From NCBI GenBank assembly GCA_948739805.1, contig CAPYID010000002.1, forward strand, positions 48,295 to 112,294: DNA of 64,000 nt, given 5' to 3'. This stretch comes from an uncultured Clostridia bacterium (GTDB lineage Bacteria; Bacillota; Clostridia; TANB77; CAG-508). Below, piece after piece: positions 3,660 to 18,884 of the stretch; position 1 is the first letter of the stretch, and every line of letters starts with the position of its first letter. The notes beneath the pieces are model-generated. The model made no database searches and was not told the DNA's origin. It was given only the letters and a program-made list of their open reading frames with translations. The translations under genes and the position numbers were made by a program.

Positions 3660-6600
3660 ATGATGATAGAGGGATATGAACTTAGTAAATACTTAGAGCC
3701 AGTAACTATAAAGATAATGAATTTTATACATAAATCAAGATGTTTATATACATGTACAGAAGATAACAATAATAAAATTTTAAAATATTCATACTTAAAT
3801 TTATGTACATATAATAGAGAAAGTGAAGAACAAGACTATATTGATTTATTAGCAGTTAATTTTGCAAACTATAATATGATGAGAGAAACAAGTAACTGGA
3901 CTATTGAATATAATCAGTATTCAGAAAGTATTAGAAGAAAATGTAATTGGTGTGATGTAAAATCAGACTTTTGTCCAATCAAAGCATATGCAGATTTAAG
4001 AAACTATGCAACACATAACAAATTAGACATAGATAAATTAATGGAAAAATTAGTAGATGAACCAATTGTGAAGACCATAAGTAATGAAGTTCTAGAGAAA
4101 AGTGTAGCAAATAAGGTCTTAAAAATATGTAATGACTTTTCAGAATTAAGGGTAGCACAACTATTAATTGAAACAAAGACAGTAAAGCTAATAGAAGCTA
4201 TAAATGATATAGTAAAATATAATCGAATAGACCTAAAGGTTAATAGTGATTCTTTAATTAATAATTTATATAATTATTATACAGAGACAGGACATACGAT
4301 AGAAGAAACAATAGATTTAAACAACTTAACAGATAACATACAAACACATATGTATGAATGCTCACCATATAAAATAGCAGCATATGTTTTATACTTATGT
4401 GCCATAGAAAAATTAAACCCAAAAAGAGTGTTAGAAAGAGCGATATATAAATGTGGCAATATTGCAGAAAGTAAATTTAACACCTACTATAAATGGTATG
4501 TATATCAAATAAAGGAATTAGACTGCGAACAAGATGTAAAAGAACAATTAATAGAGATAATTACTTATATAAAGAATTATCATACAAAATATCAATATCA
4601 TTTACCATATATTCAATTAAATATTAATGTACAAATTGAAGATGAGAGTTTATTAGAAAAGATAATGTCAATTATATATAGATTTGCAACTAGCTGTGGC
4701 TATATAAAGGAGAAAATGCTAATTATAGACACTGAATTTTTATATAGTAAATGTGAAAAAGATGCAGAAATAGTCAATAATATTGACAAAATGTATAAAG
4801 ATAGTGGAATGATTGTAGTAAAGGAACTTGAAAAAATTTCATTATCACAAAGTAAAATGGAAAACTTATTTTATGCAATAGAAAGTAGTATGAAGATTTA
4901 TGATAGAACAATAACAATAATTGCATCAAAAAATGATATGACAAATTTCATAAAAGGTTACCCATTACTTCAGTCAAAAATAAGACATAATATAAAAATA
5001 GAAGAATATAGTTTAGAAAAACTTCAAGATAAAATAATGAAAAGGCTAAAAAATAATTATGAAGTATCAGAAGAAATTGAAAGAAATGTAAGAAAATTCA
5101 TTGAAAGTGATTATAAGCAAAGTAATGTTAAAAATAATGACTATATTGAAGATTTATACAGAGATATTGTATATAGTAATTTTAATACTTTAAATGTATC
5201 AGCAGAATTAAAAGATGAAAGAATTAAATATGACAAAAAAGAAAGTAATGGAACATCTAAGAAAAACATTAAAGATTTAATAGGGCTAGAAGAAATAAAA
5301 AGAGAAGTACAGAAATTCAGAAATCTGTTAGCATTTAATAAAAAGATACCAAATAAATTAGAAAACAAAAACATGAATATGAACATGTTATTCTTAGGAA
5401 ATCCAGGAACAGGAAAGACAACAGTTGCAAGTATAATGGCGGATATTTTATATGAATTAGGATATATAAAGAAAAATAAATTTATAGATGTAACTGCAAA
5501 GGATTTAGTAGCAGAATATGTAGGACAAACAGCAATTAAGACATCTAGAATAATAGAAAATGCTTTAGATGGAGTATTATTCATAGACGAAGCATATTCA
5601 ATAGTATCAGCAAATAAAAATGCAAGTTTTGGAGAAGAATCTATTGCAACATTAGTTCAAGCTATGGAAAAATATAAAGACAGACTAGTAGTTATATTTG
5701 CTGGATACACTTTAGAAATGAAAAACTTCTTAGATTCAAACCCAGGTATAGCTTCAAGAATAGGATATACTTTTGAATTTAGCAATTATACAACAGAAGA
5801 ATTAATACAGATATTAGACAAATATGCTTTGAGCAAAGGCTTTACAATAGAAGACGAAGCTAAAAAAGGTATAATTGAAATATTAGAAATAAATAAAAAT
5901 ACTAGAAACTTTGGAAATGCAAGGTTTATGATTAATTTATTTGAAAGATTAGTTATGATACATGCCCAAGAATTTGAAGAAGATAAATTGATGACTATAA
6001 CAAAAAAAGATGTAATAGCATTAACAAATGAAAGTTTTAGTTTAAAGAAAAGTACAGAGGAAATACAAGGAGAATTATCAACATTAGTTGGATTAACTAA
6101 TGTTAAAAAGGAATTAGACGGTTTAATAGACTTAGTAATGCTAAATAACAAATTGGAAAAAAGGATACCATTAAACCTAAATATGATATTTATAGGAAAT
6201 CCAGGAACAGGAAAAACAACAGTTGCAAGAATTTTTGCAGAAATTTTATATAATTTAGGATATATAAAAAATAACAAATTAATAGAAGTAACAGGAAAAG
6301 ACTTAATTGGAGAATATGTAGGGCAAACATCAAACAAAACAGCAAAAGTATTAGAAAATGCATTAGATGGATTATTATTTATAGATGAAGCATATACATT
6401 AATGAATCAAGCTGGAAATAATGGCAATTATTCTCAAGATGCAATATCAACAATAACAAAATATATGACAGACTATGAAGGAAGAATAACTATAATATTT
6501 GCAGGATATAAAGAAGAAATGAAAGAATTTTTAGAATTAAACTCGGGTCTAATTTCAAGGGTAGGAGAAACAATAGAATTTAGTGATTATTCAGAAGAAG

Positions 6601-7189: not shown

Positions 7190-9964
7190 ATGGGAATTTT
7201 TAACAAAATTTTTAAATCATATTCAGAAAGAGAAGTACAAAGGGTAATGCCACTTGTGGAAAAAATAAATAGTTTAGAGGAGGAAATTTCAAAACTATCA
7301 GATATAGAATTATCAAATAAAACCAAAGAATTTAAAGATAGGTTACAAAATGGAGAAACCCTAGATGATATTTTAACAGAGGCATTTGCAGTAATGAGAG
7401 AAGCATCAAAAAGAGTTTTAGGAATGAGACATTTTGATGTTCAATTAATTGGTGGAATTATTTTGCACCAAGGAAGAATTGCAGAGATGAAAACAGGAGA
7501 AGGAAAAACTTTAGTTGCAACACTTCCAGCATATTTAAATGCGTTATCAGGAAATGGAGTTCATGTAGTTACAGTAAACGATTATCTAGCCACACGTGAT
7601 AGTGAATGGATGGGAAAAGTTTACAAATTTTTAGGTCTAACAGTAGGACTAGTTATAAGTGGAATGAAGCCAGAAGAAAAACAAAAGGCATATTCAGCAG
7701 ACATTACATATGGAACAAATAATGAATTTGGATTTGATTATTTAAGAGATAATATGGTTATATATAAAAACCAAGCAGTTCAAAGAGGATTAAACTTTGC
7801 AATTGTAGACGAGATAGATAGTATATTAATAGATGAGGCACGTACACCATTAATTATTTCAGGAAAAGCAGCAGCTTCATCAGAAATGTATACAAAAGCA
7901 GACGATTTTGTAAAAAAACTTACACCAAAAATAATTGTAGAAGAAGATGTTAAAGACATTGATCAAGCAGAAGACAATGAAAAATACGACTATATAGTAG
8001 ATTTAAAGGCAAAATCTGCATCTCTTACAGCAAAGGGAATTGACAAAGCAGAAAAAACATTTAACTTAGAGAATTTAGATGACTTAGATAACTCAGATTT
8101 AGTTCATCACATAAACCAAGCATTACGAGCACATGGTATAATGAAAAAAGATATAGATTATATAGTAAAAGGTGGAGAAGTATTAATTGTAGACGAATTT
8201 ACAGGACGTATAATGTATGGTAGACGTTATAATAATGGTTTACATCAAGCAATAGAAGCAAAAGAAAGAGTAAGAATAGCAGATGAATCAAAAACTCTAG
8301 CAACAATAACATTCCAAAATTACTTTAGAATGTATTCAAAACTTTCAGGAATGACAGGTACTGCGATGACAGAAGAAGCAGAATTTCAAGAAATATACAA
8401 ATTAGATGTTATAACAATACCTACAAATAAACCAATGATAAGAGAAGACTCAAATGATGTAATATACAAAAATGAGAAAGCGAAATTTAATGCAATAGTA
8501 GAAGAAATTAAGAAAAGTCATGAAAAAGGTCAACCAGTATTAGTAGGAACAATATCAATTGAAAACTCTGAAAAGATAAGTAGTATATTAAAAAAAGAAG
8601 GAATACCACACCAAGTATTAAATGCAAAATTCCATGAAAGAGAAGCTGCTATTATAGCACAAGCAGGTAAATATGGTGCAGTAACAATATCTACAAACAT
8701 GGCAGGACGTGGTACAGACATTATACTAGGTGGAAACTCAGAATACTTAGCAAGACAAGAGATGAAAAAAAAGGCATATTCAGACGAACTAATAGAGCAG
8801 GCAAATGCATATAATGAAACAGATGACCAAGAAGTATTAGAAGCAAGAAATATATTTAGAGATTTAGAGAAGAAATTTGACGAAGAAATAAAAGAAGAGA
8901 AGGAAAAAGTAATAAAAGCTGGTGGACTAAAAATCATAGGAACAGAAAGGCACGAATCAAGAAGAATTGATAATCAGTTAAGAGGACGTAGTGGAAGACA
9001 AGGAGATGTCGGAGAATCAAAATTCTTCATAGGACTTGATGATAATTTAATGAAAATATTTGGTGGAGATGTAATAACAAATATATATGATAAAATAGGC
9101 GCAGATGAAGACATGCCTATAGAAGCAAAAATGTTATCAAGTGCAGTAGAAAATGCACAAAAAAGAGTTGAAGGAAGAAACTTTAGTATACGTAAGAATG
9201 TATTACAATATGATGATGTTATGAACACACAAAGAGAAATAATATATGGACAAAGAAGAGATGTATTAGACGGTAAAAATTTAAAAGAAAGTATATTAAA
9301 AATGATTGAGCCAGTAGCAACAGAAGTAGTTTCAAGTTTCTTTGGGACAGAAGAAAATGAAAATATAAATAAAGAATCATTAGCACAAGAAATAAAAAAC
9401 AATTTTGGGATTAGTGATATAGAAGCATTAAAAGAAGAAAAACTAAATCAAGTAGATATAATAAATGAGGTAGTAGAAAAATCAAAACAGAAATATGAAG
9501 AAAAAGAGCAAGAACTAGGCGAACAAGAAATAAGAGAACTAGAAAGAGTAGTAATGTTAAAAGTAGTAGACCAAAAGTGGATGGATCATATAGATGCAAT
9601 GGATGACTTAAAAGAAGGAATTGGTTTACGTGCTTATGGACAAAAAGATCCAGTAGCACAATATAGAATAGAAGGATTTGACATGTTTGACGCAATGGTA
9701 GCAGAAATACAAAAAGATGTAGTAAAAATCCTATTAAACATTCAAAAAGCAGGAGAACTAAAAAGAGAACAAACAGCAAAGATAACATCTGTTGCTCAAG
9801 CAACATTAGATAGTATAAATGTAGTAACAGAAAATAAGGAACAAGTTCCACAAACATCAGATGTGAAAAGAACACCTGTAGTAAATCAAGGACCAAAAGT
9901 AGGAAGAAATGACCCTTGTCCTTGTGGAAGTGGGAAGAAGTATAAAAACTGCTGTGGAAAATAG
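7190..9964 (+). CDS. secA: preprotein translocase subunit SecA
   Basis: Full-length SecA with DEAD-motor motifs ([27 protein letters not shown]) and C-terminal zinc-finger tail [18 protein letters not shown] at 7190 preferred over the upstream GTG at 7172 because of RBS spacing. Confidence 0.95.
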
Positions 9965-9973
9965 TATAAAATG

Positions 9974-9997
9974 AGGCTTTTTCGGAAGCCTTATTTT
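9974..9997 (+). terminator. intrinsic terminator after secA
   Basis: AGGCTT/AAGCCT 6-bp stem followed by TATTTT. Confidence 0.55.
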
Positions 9998-10022
9998 AAA
10001 AGCAGTACGAGTTGGAAATAAA

Positions 10023-10041
10023 TGTCCACGATTTGTCCACG
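10023..10041 (+). promoter_or_regulatory. tandem direct repeat TGTCCACG x2 (operator-like) upstream of the DUF2000 gene
   Basis: TGTCCACGATTTGTCCACG seen directly. Confidence 0.3.
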
Positions 10042-10070
10042 TAAAAAGATTCATAGGGAGGAATATTAAT

Positions 10071-10499
10071 ATGGTATATAATGATAAATATAAATTTGTA
10101 GCAATTATTAATGAAAAAATAGAAATAGGAAAGGCATTAAATGCAATTGCACATATGGGATTAGGATTAGTAAATATAGCAGATGAAGAAACAAAAGAAA
10201 ATATGTCTTTTGTTGATTTCCCAGATAAAGACGAAGAGTTACATAAGAGTATATCTGGATTATCTTTAATCGTTTTGGGCGGAAAAAATAACGAAATAAA
10301 AAAGGCTAGAAGGCAATTTAAAGAAGAAGGAATATTATTTGTGGACTTTATAGAAACAATGACAGGAGATACATATGCGGAGCAGTTGGTAAAAACAAAA
10401 GAGATAAATACAGAAGAACACAATTATTTTGGATTACTAGCATTTGGAGAAATAGAAAAAATAAATCCTATTACAAAAAGATTGTCATTATATAAATAA
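10071..10499 (+). CDS. DUF2000-family protein (predicted PTH2-like fold)
   Basis: 142 aa. KFVAIINEKIEIGKALNAIAHMGLGL matches the DUF2000 N-terminal pattern as I recall it. GGGAGG RBS 9 nt upstream. Confidence 0.5.
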   Translation: MVYNDKYKFVAIINEKIEIGKALNAIAHMGLGLVNIADEETKENMSFVDFPDKDEELHKSISGLSLIVLGGKNNEIKKARRQFKEEGILFVDFIETMTGDTYAEQLVKTKEINTEEHNYFGLLAFGEIEKINPITKRLSLYK

Positions 10500-10567
10500 G
10501 TTTAAATTATTAAAGTCTTCTATTGGGAACAAAAATGGCAAACTTGGGAAAATAAATTCAAAAAATA

Positions 10568-10598
10568 TTGACAAATGGTATAAAAACGGGTTATAATG
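10568..10598 (+). promoter_or_regulatory. promoter of the toxI-like/toxN unit (TTGACA ... TATAAT)
   Basis: TTGACA at 10568-10573 and TATAAT at 10593-10598 (spacer 18-19 nt). Confidence 0.45.
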
Positions 10599-10602
10599 AA
10601 TA

Positions 10603-10682
10603 TAATAGAAATAGATATTTAATATCTATTTACAGTTAAAAATCAGGTGAACCCTACCAATAAGTGGGAGCTGTAAAATCAA
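10603..10682 (+). ncRNA. toxI: putative type III antitoxin RNA (ToxI-like): 5' hairpin plus a single 36-nt ToxI-like repeat unit (10645-10680)
   Basis: Unit AGGTGAACCCTACCAATAAGTGGGAGCTGTAAAATC is bounded by AAAAT on both sides 36-37 nt apart. It aligns block-by-block with the ToxI repeat as I recall it (AGGTGA..CTACC..AAGTG..AGCT..AAAT(T)C). Palindrome AAATAGATATTTAATATCTATTT at 10609-10631. It sits between a promoter and a terminator immediately upstream of a ToxN/AbiQ-family ORF. Confidence 0.45.
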
Positions 10683-10719
10683 AAGGTAGAGATCTAGGTC
10701 TTTACCTTTTATATTTTTT
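10683..10719 (+). terminator. intrinsic terminator/attenuator between antitoxin RNA and toxN (typical type III TA architecture)
   Basis: AAAGGTAGAGATC/GGTCTTTACCTTT imperfect hairpin followed by TATATTTTTT. Confidence 0.5.
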
Positions 10720-10730
10720 AGGAGGGAAAA

Positions 10731-11258
10731 ATGAAACTATATTCAGTAACAGATAAATATATAGATTATTTAAGACAATTTGATTATAAAGTTTATGACA
10801 ATAAAGAAGATAGAAGAAAAGTAATGAGAAAATATTTGGGTATAGTTTTAACAATAAATGAAATGAACTATTATATACCAATGTCATCTCCTAAAAAGAG
10901 TGATTATAAAGATAATGAAATAAGAAAATCTATTGTTCCTATTGTAAGAATTGTATCAAATGAGGAAGTCGATAATGTACCAGTTTTAAAAGGAACATTA
11001 AGAATTAGTAATATGATACCTGTTCCAGATAGTGAATTAATATTATATGAGCCTAAATATGAAAGAAACAAAAATTATAAGATATTAGTTGAAAAGGAAC
11101 TTGAATTTATTGGGAAAAATGAAGAAATGATAAAGAAGTATGCAAGTATTATATATAATCAAAAAATTAATAATTATGATGTATCTTATATAAATAATGT
11201 TGTAGATTTTAAGTTATTAGAACAAAAATGTAAGGAATATAAAAGCGACAATAATTGA
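10731..11258 (+). CDS. toxN: type III toxin-antitoxin system ToxN/AbiQ-family endoribonuclease toxin
   Basis: 175 aa. MKLYSVTDKYIDYLRQFDYKV...KYLGIVLTINEMNYYIPMSSPKK closely parallels the AbiQ N-terminus as I recall it (MKFYTISSKYIEYLKEFDDKV...IGIVLEIQGHKYLAPLTSPKK). Size matches AbiQ/ToxN. RBS AGGAGGG. Confidence 0.8.
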   Translation: MKLYSVTDKYIDYLRQFDYKVYDNKEDRRKVMRKYLGIVLTINEMNYYIPMSSPKKSDYKDNEIRKSIVPIVRIVSNEEVDNVPVLKGTLRISNMIPVPDSELILYEPKYERNKNYKILVEKELEFIGKNEEMIKKYASIIYNQKINNYDVSYINNVVDFKLLEQKCKEYKSDNN

Positions 11259-11312
11259 AAAATTTAATATGGGCATTGTATTTTTTATAAGATTATTATA
11301 TACTATTTTCAT

Positions 11313-11333
11313 AAATCGAATGTAAACATTGTT
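11313..11333 (+). repeat. 21-bp direct repeat AAATCGAATGTAAACATTGTT, copy 1 (second copy at 18433-18453)
   Basis: Exact 21/21 identity between the two loci, which flank the integrase-containing segment. Confidence 0.7.
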
Positions 11334-11470
11334 TGCATTTTGTTTGCAAAAAATAAGAAAACATATACAAAAATAATACTAATAATACCAAAAATATAAA
11401 TGGCTATAATCCGTGATATTATTAGTATACATAGTATTCTATAGTATTGATAATACAGAAATAAAGTCTT

Positions 11471-11520
11471 CATGTGGAAGTGGAAAGAAGTATAAGAATT
11501 GTTGCGGAAGAAATGAGTAA
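11471..11520 (+). mobile_element. diverged duplicate of the secA 3' end (encodes ...[15 protein letters not shown]): att-site remnant of a secA-3'-targeting integrative element
   Basis: TGTGGAAGTGGAAAGAAGTATAAGAATTGTTGCGGAA versus the secA end TGTGGAAGTGGGAAGAAGTATAAAAACTGCTGTGGAA (9924-9960). Integrase gene lies 230 bp downstream. Confidence 0.6.
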
Positions 11521-11565
11521 AATCAATAGTTTGAGAGATGTATAAAATATAAAAAACTAATCTAA

Positions 11566-11670
11566 AAACACAAATTGTTGCCGATTTGTTGCCAAACAAG
11601 ATAGAAATCTCTAAAAGCTTTAAAAATGATACATTTCTTATGACAACAATTTGGGCGACAAATTGAATAC
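11566..11670 (+). promoter_or_regulatory. four copies of an 11-nt motif (A/T)ATTTGTTGCC arranged as two inverted pairs upstream of int1 (arm-type or operator sites)
   Basis: AAATTGTTGCC and GATTTGTTGCC at about 11571-11597. GACAACAATTT and GGCGACAAATT (the reverse complements) at about 11642-11667. Confidence 0.4.
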
Positions 11671-11679
11671 GAGAACTAA

Positions 11680-11706
11680 AAGTCAACATATAAAAAGTGT
11701 TGACTT
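11680..11706 (+). promoter_or_regulatory. 9-bp perfect inverted repeat AAGTCAACA-N9-TGTTGACTT overlapping the -35 TTGACT of the int1 promoter
   Basis: Seen directly. TTGACT at 11699-11704. Confidence 0.4.
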
Positions 11707-11746
11707 GTTTTTTATTTACTAAATTTTTTAGGAGGTAAAAATAGTT

Positions 11747-13015
11747 ATGGTTAGTGTCAGTAAAAGAGGAAAAGTGTATCAATATCAATTTGATATTGCA
11801 CCTATTAACGGCAAAAGAAAGAGAGTTACAAAATCTGGATTCAAAACAAAAGCAGAAGCAGAAAAGGCAGGAATAGAGGCATACAATGAATATAACAATA
11901 CAGGACATTCTTTTATTCCATCACAAATATCTTATAGTGATTATTTAGATTATTGGATGAAAGAACATTGCGAGATAAATTTGAAATATCACACAATAGA
12001 GGCATACAAAAATATTGTAAAAAATCATATAAAACCTAAATTAGGATTTTATAGATTATCACAAATAACAACAGCGACACTTCAAGAATTTATCAATAAC
12101 ATATATGTAGAAAAGAGCTTTTCGAAAAATTTTTTAAGGAATATTTTAAAGGTTTTGAAAACGTCATTTACCTATGCAACAGATGTAGTAGGATTTGTGA
12201 AGGAAAATCCATCATTAAAGGTTAGACTTCCTAAATATGATATTCAAGCTGAAGATCCAGTTCATATTTTTACAAAAGAAGAAGTCAAAATGATTTTAAA
12301 TAGATTTCAAAATAATCATGCAATTTATTATGCTTTTTTAACTGCGTACTATACTGGACTTCGAGTTTCAGAAGTGTTTGGACTAACTTGGAAGGACATT
12401 GATTTGGAAAACAAAAGATTAACAGTAAATAAAAATGTCTTGAAGAAAAATCAAAAAGGAGGAACAAAAAATAGAAATATTAGTGGAAATGCCACAACAG
12501 TTTGGTATTTTGGAACTTGCAAAACAACAAGTAGTTATAGAACTATTGATATTGGAGATACATTAGTAAATGCTTTAAAAGAATACAAAAAAGAGCAAGA
12601 AAAATATAAAGAAGAATATGGTGATTCATACATGAAGCATTATGCAAAAGAAGTAGAAAATCCATATACTAAAAAGAAGGAAATAAAAATAGTAAATGCT
12701 TATGCTGAAATTGATGTTACATTGCCAGAAGTCAATTTAGTTTTCTTAAAAAATAATGGAGTATTTGAAGGAACAGATACTTGCAAATATCCATTCAAAG
12801 TAATTCATTATGAATTAGGAATTCCATGCAGATTTCATGATTTTAGAGATACACATGCAACAAGATTAATTGAAGCAGGAGCAGATATAAAAGCAGTATC
12901 AAAGAGATTAGGACATAGTACAATAAAAACAACTTATGAAATATATGTAAGAGTAACAACAAAAATGGAAACAGATATAGTACAAAAATTTGAGCAATTT
13001 ACCTTAAATTTATAA
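11747..13015 (+). CDS. int: site-specific tyrosine recombinase/integrase (phage/ICE type), copy 1
   Basis: 422 aa. N-terminal KSGFKTKAEAEKA DNA-binding-type segment. C-terminal catalytic region with HDFRDTHATRL, GHSTIKTT and the YEIYV tyrosine region. Confidence 0.85.
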   Translation: MVSVSKRGKVYQYQFDIAPINGKRKRVTKSGFKTKAEAEKAGIEAYNEYNNTGHSFIPSQISYSDYLDYWMKEHCEINLKYHTIEAYKNIVKNHIKPKLGFYRLSQITTATLQEFINNIYVEKSFSKNFLRNILKVLKTSFTYATDVVGFVKENPSLKVRLPKYDIQAEDPVHIFTKEEVKMILNRFQNNHAIYYAFLTAYYTGLRVSEVFGLTWKDIDLENKRLTVNKNVLKKNQKGGTKNRNISGNATTVWYFGTCKTTSSYRTIDIGDTLVNALKEYKKEQEKYKEEYGDSYMKHYAKEVENPYTKKKEIKIVNAYAEIDVTLPEVNLVFLKNNGVFEGTDTCKYPFKVIHYELGIPCRFHDFRDTHATRLIEAGADIKAVSKRLGHSTIKTTYEIYVRVTTKMETDIVQKFEQFTLNL

Positions 13016-13084
13016 AAAATAAGAGTGTACCATGCAAGGGAATGTTATTAAAAAATTAATAAGAAAAATGAATGTTAATAATCT

Positions 13085-13130
13085 AAAAGGCTTGCCCTTT
13101 TATGTGTTTTCAGTGTTTCTTATGAACACT
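13085..13130 (+). terminator. weak hairpins with T-run downstream of int1
   Basis: AAAAGG-CTTGC-CCTTTT followed by AGTGTT-N7-AACACT. Confidence 0.3.
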
Positions 13131-13270
13131 TTCCTGCGTAGGCTATTATTATAATGAGCAAAATACATATTGTCTAAAAAAGATAAAAATAAAAAGTTTT
13201 AAAGCAAAGACAAAATTTAATTATTATGGTATAATGATTAAAACTTTTTATAAAGAGATAGGAGTAAATT

Positions 13271-13705
13271 ATGAAAGAAGAAAGATATAAATTTATATGT
13301 GCAGTTTATTTGCTATTAATAAAAGAAAATCAAATATTATTACTAAAGAGATATAATACAGGATATGAAGATGGAAATTATAGTTTAGTGTCAGGACATA
13401 TGGAAGGAAATGAGACAATTAAACAAGCAATGATTAGAGAAGCTAGAGAAGAAGCAGGAATAATAATATATGAAGAAGACATCAAAATAGCAACTTTTTT
13501 ACATAGAAAAACTGATCCAGAAAGGTTCGACTTTTTCTTACAATGTAAGAAATGGAATGGAGAGATTGACAATAAAGAACCAGATAAATGTTGTGAATTA
13601 AGTTGGTATGATATTAATAATTTGCCAAGTAATATAATTCCATGTGTTAGAAAGGCTATAGAAAATTATCAAAATAATGTTATGTTTGACAACTTTGGAT
13701 GGTAG
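13271..13705 (+). CDS. NUDIX hydrolase
   Basis: Nudix box GHMEGNETIKQAMIREAREEAGI (GX5EX7REUXEEXGU). 144 aa. Extended -10 TGGTATAAT at about 13227-13237. Confidence 0.75.
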   Translation: MKEERYKFICAVYLLLIKENQILLLKRYNTGYEDGNYSLVSGHMEGNETIKQAMIREAREEAGIIIYEEDIKIATFLHRKTDPERFDFFLQCKKWNGEIDNKEPDKCCELSWYDINNLPSNIIPCVRKAIENYQNNVMFDNFGW

Positions 13706-13739
13706 TTATATTTTAATATAGTAAGGAGAATTATAATCT

Positions 13740-14288
13740 ATGAACAATTATTTTATCATTCATGGCTCTTATGGAAATCCATACAAAAACTGGATTCCAT
13801 ATTTAAAGTCTCAATTAAGTAAAAGAAAATTAAATTGTATAGTGCCAAGCTTTACAACTCCATATAAACAAGATTATGAAAGTTGGAACACTATACTAAT
13901 GTCTTATGCCAAAGTTGGATATATTACAGAAGAAACAACTTTTATTACACATAGTTTAGGAGGAATTTTTCTATTAAAGTTCTTAATAGAAAATAAAGTA
14001 AAAGTAAAGAAAATTATTACAGTTGCAGGATTTAACAATATACATTTTGATAAAGATAATAGTTTATATGATTCGTTTTATATACTAGATGAAGAATTAA
14101 CAAAAATAAGCGAATTATGTCATGAAATAGTATGTATTTATTCTGATAATGATCCATATATTCCAATGGAAAAAGCTAAATTCTTTGCAGATAATATCAA
14201 AGCAAAAAAGCTTCTAATAAATAATGCAGGACACTTTAACGAAAAATATGGATATAAAGAGTTTAGGGGAATTTTAGAGTATATATAA
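13740..14288 (+). CDS. alpha/beta serine hydrolase of the RBBP9/YdeN family
   Basis: 182 aa. IIHGSYGNPYKNW N-terminus, THSLGG (GXSXG) nucleophile elbow and C-terminal NNAGHF. Confidence 0.65.
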   Translation: MNNYFIIHGSYGNPYKNWIPYLKSQLSKRKLNCIVPSFTTPYKQDYESWNTILMSYAKVGYITEETTFITHSLGGIFLLKFLIENKVKVKKIITVAGFNNIHFDKDNSLYDSFYILDEELTKISELCHEIVCIYSDNDPYIPMEKAKFFADNIKAKKLLINNAGHFNEKYGYKEFRGILEYI

Positions 14289-14453
14289 TACCTAGATTTC
14301 AAAAACACTTCAAAATTATTTCATTGTATTTAGAAAAAATATGTTCTATACTTATAATATGAAAATTTAACAAAGAAAAAACAAGAGTAATTATGTATCA
14401 AAAACGATATATGGTTATTCTTGTTTTCTTTTATGTTTGGGAGGTGTTGGATA

Positions 14454-14696
14454 ATGGCAAAATTAGAAAACGAAAGACTTATTTATACAGTTCAAGAAAC
14501 TGCAAAAATATTACACTCAAGCCCTAATTATATATATGAATTAGTCAAAAAAGGAAAGCTTAAAGCAGTAAAATTGAAAAGTATAAGGATTCTTAAATCT
14601 ACTTTAGAAAATTTTTTAAAAGAAAATGAAGGAAATGATCTATCAGATATTGATAGTATAAGGAAAATATCAATATACGAAGATATAGAAAGATAA
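14454..14696 (+). CDS. xis: excisionase/helix-turn-helix DNA-binding protein (Xis-like)
   Basis: Small basic protein. YTVQETAKILHSSPNYIYELVKKGKLKAVKL HTH segment. Lies immediately upstream of int2. ATG at 14454 with GGGAGG RBS preferred over the ORF-track start 14421. Confidence 0.55.
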   Translation: MAKLENERLIYTVQETAKILHSSPNYIYELVKKGKLKAVKLKSIRILKSTLENFLKENEGNDLSDIDSIRKISIYEDIER

Positions 14697-14702
14697 TAAG
14701 TT

Positions 14703-15974
14703 ATGGGTAATGTTACAATTCAAAAAAGAGGCAAATATTATCAATATAAATTTGAAGTAGCTAAGGTAGAGGGCAAAAGAAAATTCATAAATAAATCTGG
14801 GTTTAAAACAAAAGATGAAGCAATTAAAGCAGGAAATATTGCTTATACAGAATATTTAAACACTGGTTTGAGTTTTAAAGAAAAGGCAATTTCATTTAGT
14901 GATTATTTAGATTACTGGTATGAAAATTATTGTGAAATAAACTTAAAATATAATACAAGAAGAACTTATAAAACAATAATTGATAAATATTTAAAACCAG
15001 AACTAGGCAAGTATAGATTAAGTTCTTTAACAAGTGTAAAGCTAAATTCATATATCGTTGATTTATGCAACAAATATAACTATAAAAAATCATATTATAG
15101 AAATATATTAAAAGTTTTGAAAAACTGTTTTAGAGTATCAACAGATGTATATGGATTTATAAGGTATAATCCAACATTAACTTTAAAATTACCTAAAATA
15201 GAAGATGAGAAGGCTTTTAAGAAACATTTATATAATAAAAATGAAATTGATATAATTTTAGATAGATTTAAAGATGATGATACTTTTACTTGTGAATTTA
15301 TTACAAGTTGTTTTACTGGAATGAGAACAGGGGAAGTATGTGCATTAACTTGGGATGATATAGATTTCGAAAATAGAGTTATAAATGTTAGGCATACAGT
15401 ATATGACAAGCCAAAAGATAATAAAGGAAGATGGTATATAGGAACTACTAAAACTAAAAAATGGACAAGACAAATTAATATGTGTGAAACTGTATATAAT
15501 GCTTTAATGAATTATAAAAAGAAACAACAATATATGAAAAAAATATATGGTAAAGAATATTTAACTTATCATTTTGAAGATGTACTCAATAAATATGGAA
15601 AAGTGGTAGAACAACGAATTGTGCAGAATGAAAGTAATATCCTTCAAATAAACAAAGCAGATATGGTATTTACAAGACTTAATGGCAAATATGTTGGCAG
15701 AAATATTTTAAATTATCCATTTAAGATAATTCATAAAGAACTTGGTATTGAAAATTGTAGATTTTACGATTTAAGAGGAAGTTATGCAACTATTAATTTA
15801 AGAAATGGTATAGAAATCAGAGCTGTTGCAGATATTTTAGGACACAAATATATAGAAACTACTGAAAACTTTTATATATCTAGTACTGATGAAGATCAGA
15901 AAGATGTAAGTAATGTATTTGACAATTTAATGAGTTCAAAAACAATTGAAGATATTATAAAATATGAGATATGA
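14703..15974 (+). CDS. int: site-specific tyrosine recombinase/integrase, copy 2 (paralog of 11747-13015)
   Basis: 423 aa, collinear with int1 (RGKYYQYKFEVAKVEGKRKFINKSGFKTKDEA..., HKELGIENCRFYDLRGSYAT, GHKYIETT). Confidence 0.85.
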   Translation: MGNVTIQKRGKYYQYKFEVAKVEGKRKFINKSGFKTKDEAIKAGNIAYTEYLNTGLSFKEKAISFSDYLDYWYENYCEINLKYNTRRTYKTIIDKYLKPELGKYRLSSLTSVKLNSYIVDLCNKYNYKKSYYRNILKVLKNCFRVSTDVYGFIRYNPTLTLKLPKIEDEKAFKKHLYNKNEIDIILDRFKDDDTFTCEFITSCFTGMRTGEVCALTWDDIDFENRVINVRHTVYDKPKDNKGRWYIGTTKTKKWTRQINMCETVYNALMNYKKKQQYMKKIYGKEYLTYHFEDVLNKYGKVVEQRIVQNESNILQINKADMVFTRLNGKYVGRNILNYPFKIIHKELGIENCRFYDLRGSYATINLRNGIEIRAVADILGHKYIETTENFYISSTDEDQKDVSNVFDNLMSSKTIEDIIKYEI

Positions 15975-16131
15975 TAATTTTAAGAGCTGGCTTGGCTGGC
16001 TCTTTAGAAATTATAAAAAATAGTATCAAGGAATTAATTTTTTAATTATTGTAATTTTATGAAATTTATGATATATTTTTAAAAAAACTTTAAAATCTAT
16101 ATACTCAAAAAAATAAAGTCAGGAGAAATAA

Positions 16132-16578
16132 ATGGTAAATATTGAATATGCAAATGCCTATAGTGAAGTTTTAGAAATATTAAAATATATTTCTAAAGAA
16201 GATTATAGTAAGATTCCACAAAATAAAATAGAATTATTTAAAACAAATTCAAACAAAGAATATAAATTTATATATAATCCTGAAAAGACATTAGATGAAC
16301 AAAATGTTTCAAAAAGAGCAAAAGCGATAATAGGATTATTATTTAGAGATTATTGGGCAACTGATGTACAAAGAGAAAAAATTATTATAAAACAAAAAAA
16401 TGATAGATTTGTTTTAGAAGAACAAAAAAAGTCATTATATGATGTTAAAAATATATTTAGGAAAAGAAATATTAACAATGAAACTAAAGTAAAAGAAGTT
16501 ACAGAAATGATAGTTTATAAAGAAAACTTTATTAAAAAATGTATTAATAAAATAAAAACTTTTCTTAATTTAAAATAG
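16132..16578 (+). CDS. hypothetical protein (148 aa), first gene of a two-gene cassette
   Basis: RBS AGGAG 8 nt upstream. Stop is 3 nt before the next start. No recognisable motif. Confidence 0.5.
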   Translation: MVNIEYANAYSEVLEILKYISKEDYSKIPQNKIELFKTNSNKEYKFIYNPEKTLDEQNVSKRAKAIIGLLFRDYWATDVQREKIIIKQKNDRFVLEEQKKSLYDVKNIFRKRNINNETKVKEVTEMIVYKENFIKKCINKIKTFLNLK

Positions 16579-16581
16579 GAG

Positions 16582-17526
16582 ATGAATATGCAATATATAA
16601 ATAGTAAAGATTTAGATTATATAAATTCATTCTTTCATTTTTCAAGAATTGATAATAGAGACAGTATTGAACAGAATGGTTTACAAGCTGTTGCAGGTGG
16701 AGAAAATGAGGCTGGAAATGATAGAGATAACAAGACTATTTATTTTTCAAAAGGTATAAGTGGAGTTTTAAAAGCAATAGATGTTTGGGCAAGATGGGAA
16801 TACGATACATATGTAAGTAAATCAGATAGGGATATAAATTATGGTTATCAAGGTTATGATAAATCTGTTATGAAAGAAATTATTTTTGATAAATTATATA
16901 ACGATTTTAAAAATAGACAGTATTATATAGTAGATTTAAAAGAGGGAAAAGATGGAGAATTTGAGTATGTAGATATAGACGTAAAAAAGGTTTTAGCAAG
17001 AGATAAAAATGGAGTGCCATATAGAGGAGCTGTTTGGAAATATGGTGAATTTAGTGATTGGGGAACTTTAGATAATCCTAATAATGTACAAGAAAATTGG
17101 AATATGAATACAAAAATAGGCGAAAGGACAATTTCGAGTGATAGGTTAAAAATTATAGAAACAGAAAGTGGAAGAACGGATGCCTTAAGCTTTGCATTAG
17201 AATCGTATTCAAAATTTAGAGCATTAGTACCTGAACAAGATAGTCCAATGTATGAAATATTAGATAATTTTATGTCTTATGCAAAAGAAAGATATAAAAG
17301 TGATAAGGACTATGAAGATGGAATGCCTGATTTGGGAAGAAGAAAGGTTAATAAACGAGAACAAAAAAAATATCAAAAAATTAATAAAATTGAGACAAAA
17401 GGATTAGGAAGGCAAGTTGTTGCAGAATTAAAAGATATACAATTAATGGATGAAACAGAAAGAACACTAAACGAACAACAAAGAGCAATGCAACAAAATA
17501 AAGATGCTCAAAATCAATCTTTATAG
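16582..17526 (+). CDS. hypothetical protein (314 aa) with N-terminal motif resembling DarT/DUF4433-type ADP-ribosyltransferases, plus a K/R/E/Q-rich C-terminal tail
   Basis: FFHFSRIDNRDSIEQNGL versus the DarT N-terminal motif as I recall it (IYHITHIDNLPSIL..GL). A following IYF segment resembles DarT VPFYF. RBS AGGAG. Translationally coupled to the upstream ORF. Confidence 0.5.
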   Translation: MNMQYINSKDLDYINSFFHFSRIDNRDSIEQNGLQAVAGGENEAGNDRDNKTIYFSKGISGVLKAIDVWARWEYDTYVSKSDRDINYGYQGYDKSVMKEIIFDKLYNDFKNRQYYIVDLKEGKDGEFEYVDIDVKKVLARDKNGVPYRGAVWKYGEFSDWGTLDNPNNVQENWNMNTKIGERTISSDRLKIIETESGRTDALSFALESYSKFRALVPEQDSPMYEILDNFMSYAKERYKSDKDYEDGMPDLGRRKVNKREQKKYQKINKIETKGLGRQVVAELKDIQLMDETERTLNEQQRAMQQNKDAQNQSL

Positions 17527-17615
17527 CACTTAATGAGAATATGTTGATTTTATATTTAAACTAGATTATTTTGTATAAAAACGATTATAGAATACAACGT
17601 AAGGAGTGATATAAC

Positions 17616-18300
17616 ATGAAAATATATGTATATTTAGATGAAAGTCGGATCAATTCATAAAAATAGTAAAACAAGATATTTTGCAGTAGGTGGATATTTT
17701 TCTTATGAAGAAGACAGACTAAAAATAAAAGCGAAATATAAAAAAGAAAATCTTAAATTAAAGAAAGAAAAAAGTTTAGATTTAGATACTGAAATAAAAT
17801 CATATGATATGACTGAAGATGAAAAAGTAAGAATCTTCAATAAAATACAAGATATTGAAACTTTTCATGGTTGTGTTAAAGTATTCGATAAAAAGTATAT
17901 GAAAAAAGAGATAGTTGATTCTGATATATTTTTCAATTATGCTGTAAAAGTTCTAATTCAAGATTGCATATTGCCAGAATTGAACTTACAAGAAAATGAC
18001 GAGCCAATAGAGTTTATTATTAGTATAGATAACAGAAACATAAGAGTAGGGGAATTAAACAATTTGGAAACATATTTAAAAACTGAATTTTGTATTTATG
18101 ATGATGATTTTAAAATTACATATTATGATTCTAAAACAAATTATGGAATACAATTAGCAGATTTAACAGTTAATACTTTTTATAATTCATACAAAGATAT
18201 AAGTATTGTTGAAAATTTAATAAAAGAATTAAAACCTAAAAACTTTAGAGTAAGTTTATTTCCGAGAAATAGTAGGAATAAAAAACAAAATAATACATAA
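17616..18300 (+). pseudogene. DUF3800-family protein gene interrupted by a +1 frameshift (extra C at about 17646)
   Basis: Frame 0 from ATG 17616 (RBS AAGGAG) gives MKIYVYLDESRINS*. Removing the C at 17646 gives MKIYVYLDESGSIHKNSKTRYFAVGG..., the canonical DUF3800 DESG start. The downstream QLAD (QxxD) motif is present. Confidence 0.6.
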
Positions 18301-18316
18301 AATATTAGTGAAATAT

Positions 18317-18345
18317 TTGACATGCAATTTTTTGTGTGGTAAAAT
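18317..18345 (+). promoter_or_regulatory. candidate promoter TTGACA-17-TGgTAAAAT
   Basis: Seen directly. Followed only by a hairpin. Confidence 0.3.
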
Positions 18346-18360
18346 ATTTATAGAGTAAGA

Positions 18361-18420
18361 CCTAGGTAAGGTAGCTAAAAGCTAAGCGTATGTTAAGTAC
18401 GCTACCACCTAGGCATTTTT
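18361..18420 (+). terminator. long imperfect hairpin (CCTAGGTAAGGTAGC ... GCTACCACCTAGG, with an inner AGCGTA/TACGCT stem) followed by a T-run: terminator or small structured RNA
   Basis: Seen directly. GC content higher than surroundings. Confidence 0.45.
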
Positions 18421-18432
18421 ATTATAATTTAA

Positions 18433-18453
18433 AAATCGAATGTAAACATTGTT
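18433..18453 (+). repeat. 21-bp direct repeat AAATCGAATGTAAACATTGTT, copy 2
   Basis: Identical to 11313-11333. Confidence 0.7.
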
Positions 18454-18470
18454 GAATATTGTATAATTAA

Positions 18471-18827
18471 ATGCACGTTGTAGACATAAAATATCTACCA
18501 GTATGGAAGTATTGTGCAGAAGTAGCACAAAGAAAAAATGAGGAAAATGAGACAGCAAAAGGAACAAACTTAAAAATAGGAAATGATATGAAGCTAGCTA
18601 ATTTTATTGAGAAAGAAATAAAAGAAGAAAAAAGTTCACCAGAAGTAATAGAATATAAAATAAAACAAGCAAAATTTGAAACGACATTGTGTTTTAAGAC
18701 AATATATAACTACATTGATAAAGAAATATTAGAAGTAAAAAGAAAAGACTTAACATGCGGAAATTACAATAAAAAAGAGAAGTTCAAAAAGGAAGAATCG
18801 GAGTTTTTAAAACCAAATAAAGATTGA
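18471..18827 (+). pseudogene. IS30-family transposase fragment (HTH_38 region only; no DDE domain)
   Basis: SSPEVIEYKIKQAKFETTLCFKTIYNYIDKEIL resembles the IS30 WSPEQI...ISHETIYR(W/Y)IY segment. ORF is only 118 aa versus about 340 aa for an intact transposase. Confidence 0.4.
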
Positions 18828-18884
18828 AGAATAGTGATAAAATCCTCATAAATACATAATATGATATTGCAAGGAGGAATGAGG

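Follow-up and report, generated by a model that had tools for sequence, protein, structure and literature searches.

In Streptococcus thermophilus, the accretion-mobilization model describes the integrative and conjugative elements ICESt1 and ICESt3 and the cis-mobilizable elements (CIMEs), which occupy the 3' end of fda. Among integrative mobilizable elements (IMEs), NBU1 of Bacteroides and streptococcal IMEs combine a tyrosine integrase with a relaxase of the MobV (Mob_Pre) type. Integrases of the lambda and Tn916 types have arm-binding domains and arm-type sites, and in tycheposons and tRNA- or tmRNA-linked island arrays, partial copies of the 3' end of the target gene lie between cargo modules. 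Here we analyze a 64,000-nt stretch of DNA from an uncultured Clostridia bacterium (contig CAPYID010000002.1, positions 48,295–112,294; the whole stretch is referred to as the window), in which the 3' end of secA is duplicated upstream of a tyrosine integrase gene. The duplicated segment shows where a family of small, integrase-carrying mobile elements of gut Clostridia docks, and the window itself probably contains a tandem array of such site-specific elements, now decayed, integrated into the last 13 codons of secA. A literature search, the coverage of which was incomplete, returned nothing on secA as an integration or attachment (att) site.

The duplicated secA tail

The secA gene (7190–9964; this and all other window features described lie on the forward strand) is intact and has a SEC-C zinc-finger tail (Pfam SecA_DEAD, P-loop_SecA, SecA_SW, SecA_PP_bind and SEC-C; the start was taken from gene calls on identical contigs). 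A repeat finder aligned two copies of the tail, 9923–9959 and 11473–11509, over 37 nt with 32 of 37 positions identical (86%), and all five mismatches were synonymous third-position changes. Across the 64 kb, a degenerate tail pattern had no matches other than these two, against 0.00 expected from shuffled sequences; thus, the duplication reported in the original prediction is real. Copy 1, which begins TGTGGAAGTGG and is fused to secA (9923–9964, stop at 9962–9964), ends in GK* and is the proposed left att (attL) of the array. Copy 2 (11473–11520, stop at 11518–11520) ends in GRNE*. Its homology to secA begins exactly at TGTGG (TGT, the second Cys codon of the CPC motif, followed by GG), whereas the stretch 5' of it is unrelated to secA, and the first integrase gene, int1, starts at 11747, which is 227 nt past the copy-2 stop.

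SEC-C motifs (PF02810) are known in proteins other than SecA, and copy 2 could be viewed as the C-terminus of a decayed unrelated SEC-C protein, or as a duplication that arose by chance or slippage and is unconnected with integration. However, there is no open reading frame (ORF) upstream of copy 2; the 190 nt preceding it are a non-coding arm that is 80–89% conserved in more than 20 element right ends, and the same geometry recurs in dozens of loci, with 0.00 expected by chance. Locus geometry and arm conservation effectively refute this explanation, which we regard as extremely improbable. As to other targets, the window has no tRNA or tmRNA gene. GC content is 22–31% throughout the region and does not mark the island.

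Related elements and the probable site of exchange

For comparison, we used about 110 related loci from genomes and metagenomes (designated L with a number). The host lineage comprises uncultured, very low-GC gut Clostridia, and the nearest species-level genomes have 72–76% identical SecA; the genome contig set had no close species for an empty-site comparison, and the clade was compared as a whole. A metagenome scan with the second integrase of the window, int2, yielded 78 loci, onto which window proteins and the tail motif were then mapped. Conclusions on the spacing of integrases and tails are based on int1 and int2 as queries.

In about 50 cases, an integrase gene of the int1 or int2 type begins 226–252 nt past the stop of a secA tail (in one case at 170 nt), and thirty-odd of these tails are joined to full secA. 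Relatives of int1 (~70% identical) are found at 226–252 nt after tails in ~40 loci. Int2-type integrases also occur directly behind secA tails (L015, L120, L124, L127 and L148), and the remaining int2 genes have xis directly 5'; the xis-int2 segment of the window has 79–94% nucleotide identity to ~45 loci. For example, an int1-like gene lies directly behind secA in L010, with xis and int2 further on, and an int2-like gene (91% identity) takes this place in L015. In both loci secA ends in CCGRNQ*, the tail type of window copy 2, and is followed by a conserved arm of ~230 nt containing TTGTTTGC twice at 11-nt spacing, inverted GCAAACAA, and TTGTTTACATTCG.

Further same-strand copies of the tail were detected downstream in L005 (three), L006, L007 and L014 (two each), L111, L114, L115, L125, L127, L130, L131, L147, L152, L176 and others; L001 has one decayed copy. 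Tail copies are present at both borders, with the gene intact, in L111, L114, L115, L125, L127, L131, L147, L152 and L176. In seven loci (L111, L114, L115, L125, L131, L147 and L152) the two tails are 8.9–12.2 kb apart; L130 is similar but has a truncated first integrase, and compact one-integrase forms span 5.0 kb (L127) and 3.9 kb (L176). The recurrent order is secA, tail, a left arm of ~230 nt, an int1-like integrase, 650 nt of non-coding sequence, AAA_25, a 68-aa ORF, Mob_Pre (MobV), xis, int2, cargo, right arm and second tail. Cargo in relatives includes NUDIX, ToxN, serine hydrolase, an ORF like the 148-aa ORF of the window, and DUF3800. Judged by this gene content, complete elements appear to be mobilizable islands of 9–12 kb, the Mob_Pre relaxase being present in L010, L111, L114 and others. 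Since a scan of viral contigs with int2 revealed no relatives, a phage or satellite origin is unsupported. Overall, comparison with relatives supports the earlier proposal of integration into the 3' end of secA with a replacement tail.

Two further features of the relatives were observed. One is the 650 nt of non-coding sequence that separate the first integrase from AAA_25 (L010 12272–12947, L111 3730–4380, L114 3735–4385): conservation among two-integrase elements is 81–98%, Rfam gave no match, and the region may be an origin of transfer (oriT), a replication origin or a structured RNA. In addition, integrase-less cassettes bracketed by secA-tail copies were found in L005 (10685–14600), L006 (10697–13700) and L014 (10706–14220). 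The bracketing tail copies keep arm repeats of the TTAGATAC type, the layout resembles an integron-like array, and the contents of the cassettes are nitroreductase-TrmO-GNAT, CutA1-HD, HAD/2'-5' ligase, and 2-hydroxyacid dehydrogenase-GNAT-HD-ToxN (the ToxN being that of L014).

The position of the exchange could be read from the two borders of L114 and L147 and from an alignment of L004 and L114, whose secA 3' ends are 98.6% identical. In a three-way alignment, L114 corresponds to an L004-type site plus a 9-kb element, with the former tail and the downstream sequence at the right end of the element. In all downstream tail copies the conserved right arm meets the shared sequence exactly at TGTGG, and at attL the secA body does. 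At the right att (attR) of L114 and L147, the arm and TGTGG are followed by GTCTGGT, i.e., host-type codons (GGGTCTGGT) straight after TGTGG, whereas at attL of the same loci secA-TGTGG continues into AAGTGG, which are element-type codons. This difference places the exchange in or beside C(A/T)TGTGG; we infer that the crossover uses the Cys-Gly codons of the zinc finger, and that in the window it would have been in or next to TGTGG at 9923–9927.

A single extra C, creating CGG at or next to the att core, was seen in four independent assemblies (L015 ~10010, L011 ~1440, L118 ~4930 and L016 ~2915; e.g., tgtatatgtCggaagtgg). The extra base puts secA out of frame and leaves an intact tail in the +1 frame. 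Possible explanations are a scar of recombination, an artefact of assembly, and the frameshift device considered below for DUF3800.

Both integrases score above cut-off for PF00589 and PF14659. The arm-binding domain PF14657 was detected in int1 (38.2 bits); in int2 it scored 19.8 bits, under the cut-off of 22.3, and the region still aligns. In an alignment, the catalytic residues of int1 read as R, HDFR, LGH and a C-terminal Y. Every aligned member of the int2 family has Tyr for His in the box II HxxR motif (YDLR). The two integrases of one element are ~41% identical to each other, and the nearest annotated phage and plasmid integrases are only ~30% identical.

Doublets of arm sites, 11 nt apart, co-vary with the type of integrase N-terminus across more than 20 loci. 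Every integrase beginning with MSNVTIQKRGKYYQYKF has TTGTTTGC twice at offset 54 in the left arm, and the int2-type right-arm motifs were found in the arms of every element with such an integrase. An N-terminus of the form MV(S/N)V(S/R)KRG.VY.Y.FD occurs only in window int1 and the L127 integrase, and their arms carry TTGTTGCC/TTGTCGCC instead. Other doublet types follow tails elsewhere (TTGTCAACG, TTAGATAC, TTTGACATC, TAGATAAG and TGTCCACG), and TGTCCAC motifs are located in the right arm in L117 and L173 and, beside a third integrase type, in the left arm in L172. It is possible, but doubtful, that the secA tail serves as a shared landing pad for a large undescribed superfamily of elements of gut Clostridia. 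These would build somewhat integron-like arrays of cassettes in the secA-prfB interval and use one core with six or more interchangeable arm-site/arm-domain codes, and the standard element would have two diverged integrases that flank its own att site (attP) and have distinct roles. The codes may be TTGTTTGC, TTGTTGCC, TTGTCAACG, TTAGATAC, TGTCCAC and possibly TTTGACATC or TAGATAAG. If this were true, the codes would keep elements that share a cell orthogonal to one another, or allow cassettes without an integrase to hitch-hike.

In the model that we propose, a tyrosine integrase of the lambda type, which has an arm-binding domain at its N-terminus, recombines the attP of the element with the secA tail. 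The attP would consist of the right arm, the core from TGTGG, an element-borne secA tail including its stop, and ~230 bp of left arm that contain arm-type sites. After the exchange SecA would still be intact but end in the tail of the element, and the previous tail would be moved to the far end.

Units of the window and their probable history

The genes listed for this region in the original prediction were found to be correct by profile searches, and we divide them into two units. Unit 1 (9923–11520) appears to be an integrase-less remnant with DUF2000 and ToxN. It is CIME-like: cores at 9923 and 11473 enclose only these two genes, and it has no recombinase of its own. The segment after copy 1 (9965–10070) is probably of element origin, a truncated left (P') arm of a lost element and of a third arm type. 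It contains a terminator-like hairpin (~9973–9997) and the TGTCCACG doublet at 10023 and 10034; the 11-nt spacing is canonical, and the doublet lies 58 nt past the stop, versus 54 in the family. No integrase follows this arm. Instead, the DUF2000 cargo gene (10071–10499; PF09391, E = 2e-30) begins there; it has no counterpart in the fetched loci, and 9973–10558 has no blastn match in related loci.

In the rest of unit 1 we recognize the right end of a mobilizable element of the L114 type. Over 974 nt, 10559–11531 is 92.3% identical to L114 10363–11336, the right end of the element in that locus, and it comprises a leader, ToxN/AbiQ (10731–11258; PF13958, E = 4e-38; PADLOC AbiQ, E = 1e-43), the conserved right (P) arm (~11279–11472, 80–89% identity to right ends of more than 20 loci) and tail copy 2. 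The arm carries int2-type sites at 11313–11347, namely CGAATGTAAACA followed by TTGTTTGC at 11329 and 11340. In the ToxN leader, which is 92% conserved with L114, TRF found just an 11-nt near-palindrome (10610–10632) and no array of antitoxin repeats, and Rfam had no ToxI match. A segment of this leader (10561–10718, promoter-like sequence plus a presumed antitoxin RNA) recurs with 92% identity at L113 6001–6158, upstream of DUF3800 and without ToxN.

Copy 2 is best viewed as a hybrid junction, with the right end of the unit-1 remnant on its left and, on its right, the left arm of unit 2 (TTGTTGCC type) and int1. It would not be the displaced native tail but an element-type tail inside an attP-like junction. 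Unit 2 (11473–18453) appears to be a two-integrase element without a relaxase module. Its left (P') arm (11521–11746) has TTGTTGCC at 11575 and 11586 and an inverted pair at 11642 and 11654. It is followed by int1 (11747–13015; Pfam Arm-DNA-bind_4, Phage_int_SAM_3 and Phage_integrase), NUDIX (13271–13705; Pfam, and PADLOC PDC-S07), Ser_hydrolase (13740–14288; Pfam), xis (14454–14696; HTH_17), int2 (14703–15974; a tyrosine integrase by Pfam) and cargo (16132–18300), which consists of a 148-aa ORF, a 314-aa ORF without a family, and DUF3800 (17638–18300, with its N-terminus in another frame from 17617). NUDIX and Ser_hydrolase occupy the place that AAA_25, the 68-aa ORF and MobV have in complete elements. 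Homology of the window to related elements breaks at this position and resumes at ~14451, and tblastn with the L010 proteins found no window match for these three. As the window has no relaxase, its copy of the element falls outside the definition of a mobilizable element and is classed as a decayed derivative.

It had been suggested that the island consists of two or three tandem elements. Tandem accretion was supported, but not the assignment of int1 and int2 to separate elements: they most likely were not accreted separately, judged by seven loci (L111, L114, L115, L125, L131, L147 and L152; 74–94% diverged sequences) that keep both integrases between consecutive tails. Two separate tandem integrations with later deletion of the att between them, which would make three accreted elements in all, therefore seem unlikely, even though each integrase type alone can define a compact element, as in L176 (int1-like, tails at 4649 and 8536) and in L127, L015 and L124 (int2-type directly after the tail). 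The two arms of unit 2 are of different types (TTGTTGCC left, TTGTTTGC right), which agrees with two elements and weighs against the array as we reconstruct it. On the other hand, xis abuts int2, and when the interval between the two integrases was searched for relic att or arm sequence in the window, L010, L111 and L114, only chance 10–14-mers turned up. A single ancient fusion that later spread is possible and would equal the same present-day unit.

At the right border, seven loci have DUF3800 right ends with 88–95% identity to 17550–18453. These relatives continue (...acattgtttgcattttgtttgc... or ...aatcgaatgtaaacattgtttgcattttgtttgc...) for ~140 nt to a tail, whereas the window follows them only to ...acattgtt at 18453, with unrelated IS30-bearing sequence from 18454. 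What is left of the unit-2 right (P) arm (18428–18453) ends inside its first TTGTTTGC site. The border is thus not an att site: the conserved arm stops at 18453/18454, 17 nt before the ORF of the IS30 fragment, and there is no displaced native tail at the far right, where one would be expected. The original prediction overlooked a 21-nt sequence, AAATCGAATGTAAACATTGTT, that is repeated exactly at 11313–11333 and 18433–18453 (0.02 expected). We considered this repeat as the true att of the island and rejected the idea, since two different units have it as the conserved outer part of their right arms; the same arm type, kept in one unit and cut in the other, explains the exact match.

The IS30-family fragment (18454–18830; ORF 18471–18827) encodes the N-terminal third of a transposase. 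It matches positions 15–109 of 267 of NCBIfam transpos_IS30 with 38.6 bits (cut-off 80) and also a PHROG transposase; it does not qualify as a full insertion sequence, i.e., a complete DDE transposase with terminal inverted repeats. Metagenome contigs of the same species repeatedly begin or end within 18462–18491, at the start of this fragment, which suggests a sequence repeated elsewhere in the genome or community. Beyond it lies a polysaccharide deacetylase gene, for which an exact protein match was obtained with the 261-aa start and none with the 269-aa ORF start.

Across Clostridia, prfB follows secA after 100–400 nt (the gap is 125 nt in L013, 6864–6989), and in the close clade this gap is filled with 1.4–9 kb of inserted material. 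These comparisons identify secA-prfB as the ancestral junction. An empty secA-deacetylase junction, proposed earlier as a check, is accordingly not expected. As prfB is absent from all 64 kb of the window, the IS30-linked event would also have broken the secA-prfB linkage, the breakpoint apparently being the IS30 fragment. Under the model, prfB should adjoin the missing part of the right arm (...TGCATTTTGTTTGC, ~125 nt, then a TGTGG-tail) and/or the other part of the IS30 copy.

Several further observations weigh against the window being an array of this kind. There is no right-hand att in the window, and the element nature of the island depends on homology with relatives. Look-ups with exact SecA, deacetylase, int1 and int2 gave 30 contigs of the same species from 22 metagenome samples, which were 99.7–100% identical to the window wherever they overlapped; they contained no other junction, no empty site or excision junction, and no excised or deleted form of unit 1. 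Thus, the empty-site allele was not found in the species itself, whereas the L004/L114 pair from related species shows the unoccupied and occupied states. The circular form was likewise not detected: no fetched contig was circular or had terminal overlaps, and the viral collection had no relatives. Finally, the tail now on secA (GK*, then a hairpin) resembles the unoccupied L013 site, and the element origin of the copy-1 tail depends on the TGTCCACG doublet alone. It could be argued that this tail and its terminator are native and never recombined, and that the block from DUF2000 to DUF3800 arrived otherwise, carrying an internal attP; GK* followed by ataaaat.agg and a hairpin is also seen at the terminal attR tails of L153 and L005. 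However, a chromosomal attP-like junction is a product of tandem site-specific integration, which needs an attL at secA. In addition, the doublet lies after copy 1 at the canonical offset and spacing of the family and is of a motif type known from arms of related elements, and left arms of elements can hold a terminator hairpin, e.g., in L014. We therefore consider a native tail to be quite improbable.

Under the preferred reading, i.e., a decayed array docked in secA, unit 1 would combine a left arm of the third type and DUF2000 with the ToxN-carrying right end of an L114-like element, its integrase having been lost. Unit 2 would have acquired its present form with NUDIX and the serine hydrolase where the replication/relaxase module normally sits, and the loss of the remaining right arm, of the right att and of the link to prfB is most likely due to an IS30-linked rearrangement. 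This order of events and the present immobility of the island are inferred from the arrangement. With neither a right att nor a relaxase, the island could not move as a unit; it appears fixed and unable to excise precisely, i.e., a fossil. Unit 1 (1,550 bp), whose two cores share TGTGGAAGTGG, could in principle excise. The predicted products would be secA body joined to TGTGGAAGTGGAAAGAAGTATAAGAATTGTTGCGGAAGAAATGAGTAA and a 1,550-bp circle with the junction ...AAATAAAGTCTTCATGTGGAAGTGGGAAGAAGTATAAAAACTGCTGTGGAAAATAG.

The DUF3800 gene is split in the window (17617–17661) and also in L113, L115, L120, L131, L150 and L152. It starts with MKIYVYLDES in one frame and then reads ...GAA AGT CGG ATC AAT TCA TAA, and the rest of the domain is in the +1 frame (GGA TCA...). 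The interruption (GAAAGTCGGATC) is identical in seven copies that otherwise differ by 5–12%, with synonymous changes in the leader. In the 16,660 codons of the long ORFs of the window, CGG occurs 0 times in frame and AGA 422 times. The interruption may be a programmed +1 frameshift at the unused CGG, or a conserved upstream ORF. Between DUF3800 and the right arm (18340–18427) there is a sub-threshold match to the DUF3800-I RNA motif (RF02969; 34.1 bits versus a gathering score of 44.2, E = 0.03). This was the only Rfam match in the window, and L010 and L015 had none.

Comparison with known systems

The element family appears to be widespread in gut Clostridia and undescribed. It adds secA to the conserved genes whose 3' ends are integration sites, and since the exchanged segment codes for part of the SecA zinc-finger tail, every element needs a working replacement. 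The family is common in human-gut metagenomes, with defence-type genes and small enzymes as cargo (ToxN/AbiQ, NUDIX, DUF3800, GNAT and HD). Its natural pairs of arm domains and arm sites on a single core could help studies of integrase specificity or the design of orthogonal integration tools. For genome annotation, 8.5 kb of accessory DNA would be explained as a fossil island.

Like ICESt1, ICESt3 and the CIMEs, these elements use a tyrosine integrase at the 3' end of a housekeeping gene, accrete in tandem with att between them, and include some integrase-less, att-flanked units. They differ in targeting the zinc-finger tail of secA, in being small MobV-type mobilizable islands rather than conjugative elements, and in having many arm types on one core. 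With NBU1 and other IMEs they share, in L010, L111, L114 and others, Mob_Pre, AAA_25, xis and an integrase within 9–12 kb between att repeats. However, most family members hold two diverged integrases, and the window copy has lost the relaxase and AAA_25 and is thus not an IME. The three-domain layout, and repeated arm sites that flank the core and co-vary with the N-terminal domain, are as in lambda and Tn916, whereas identity to annotated phage and plasmid integrases is ~30% and the int2 family has Tyr for the box II His. Cargo arrays parted by partial copies of the target 3' end, with integrase-less cassettes in L005, L006 and L014, recall tycheposons; here, however, the elements target a protein-coding tail, translation of which has to be maintained, and all copies keep the zinc-ligand codons. 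Relative to these known kinds, the secA target, the two integrase genes in most elements and the several arm types on one core are new.

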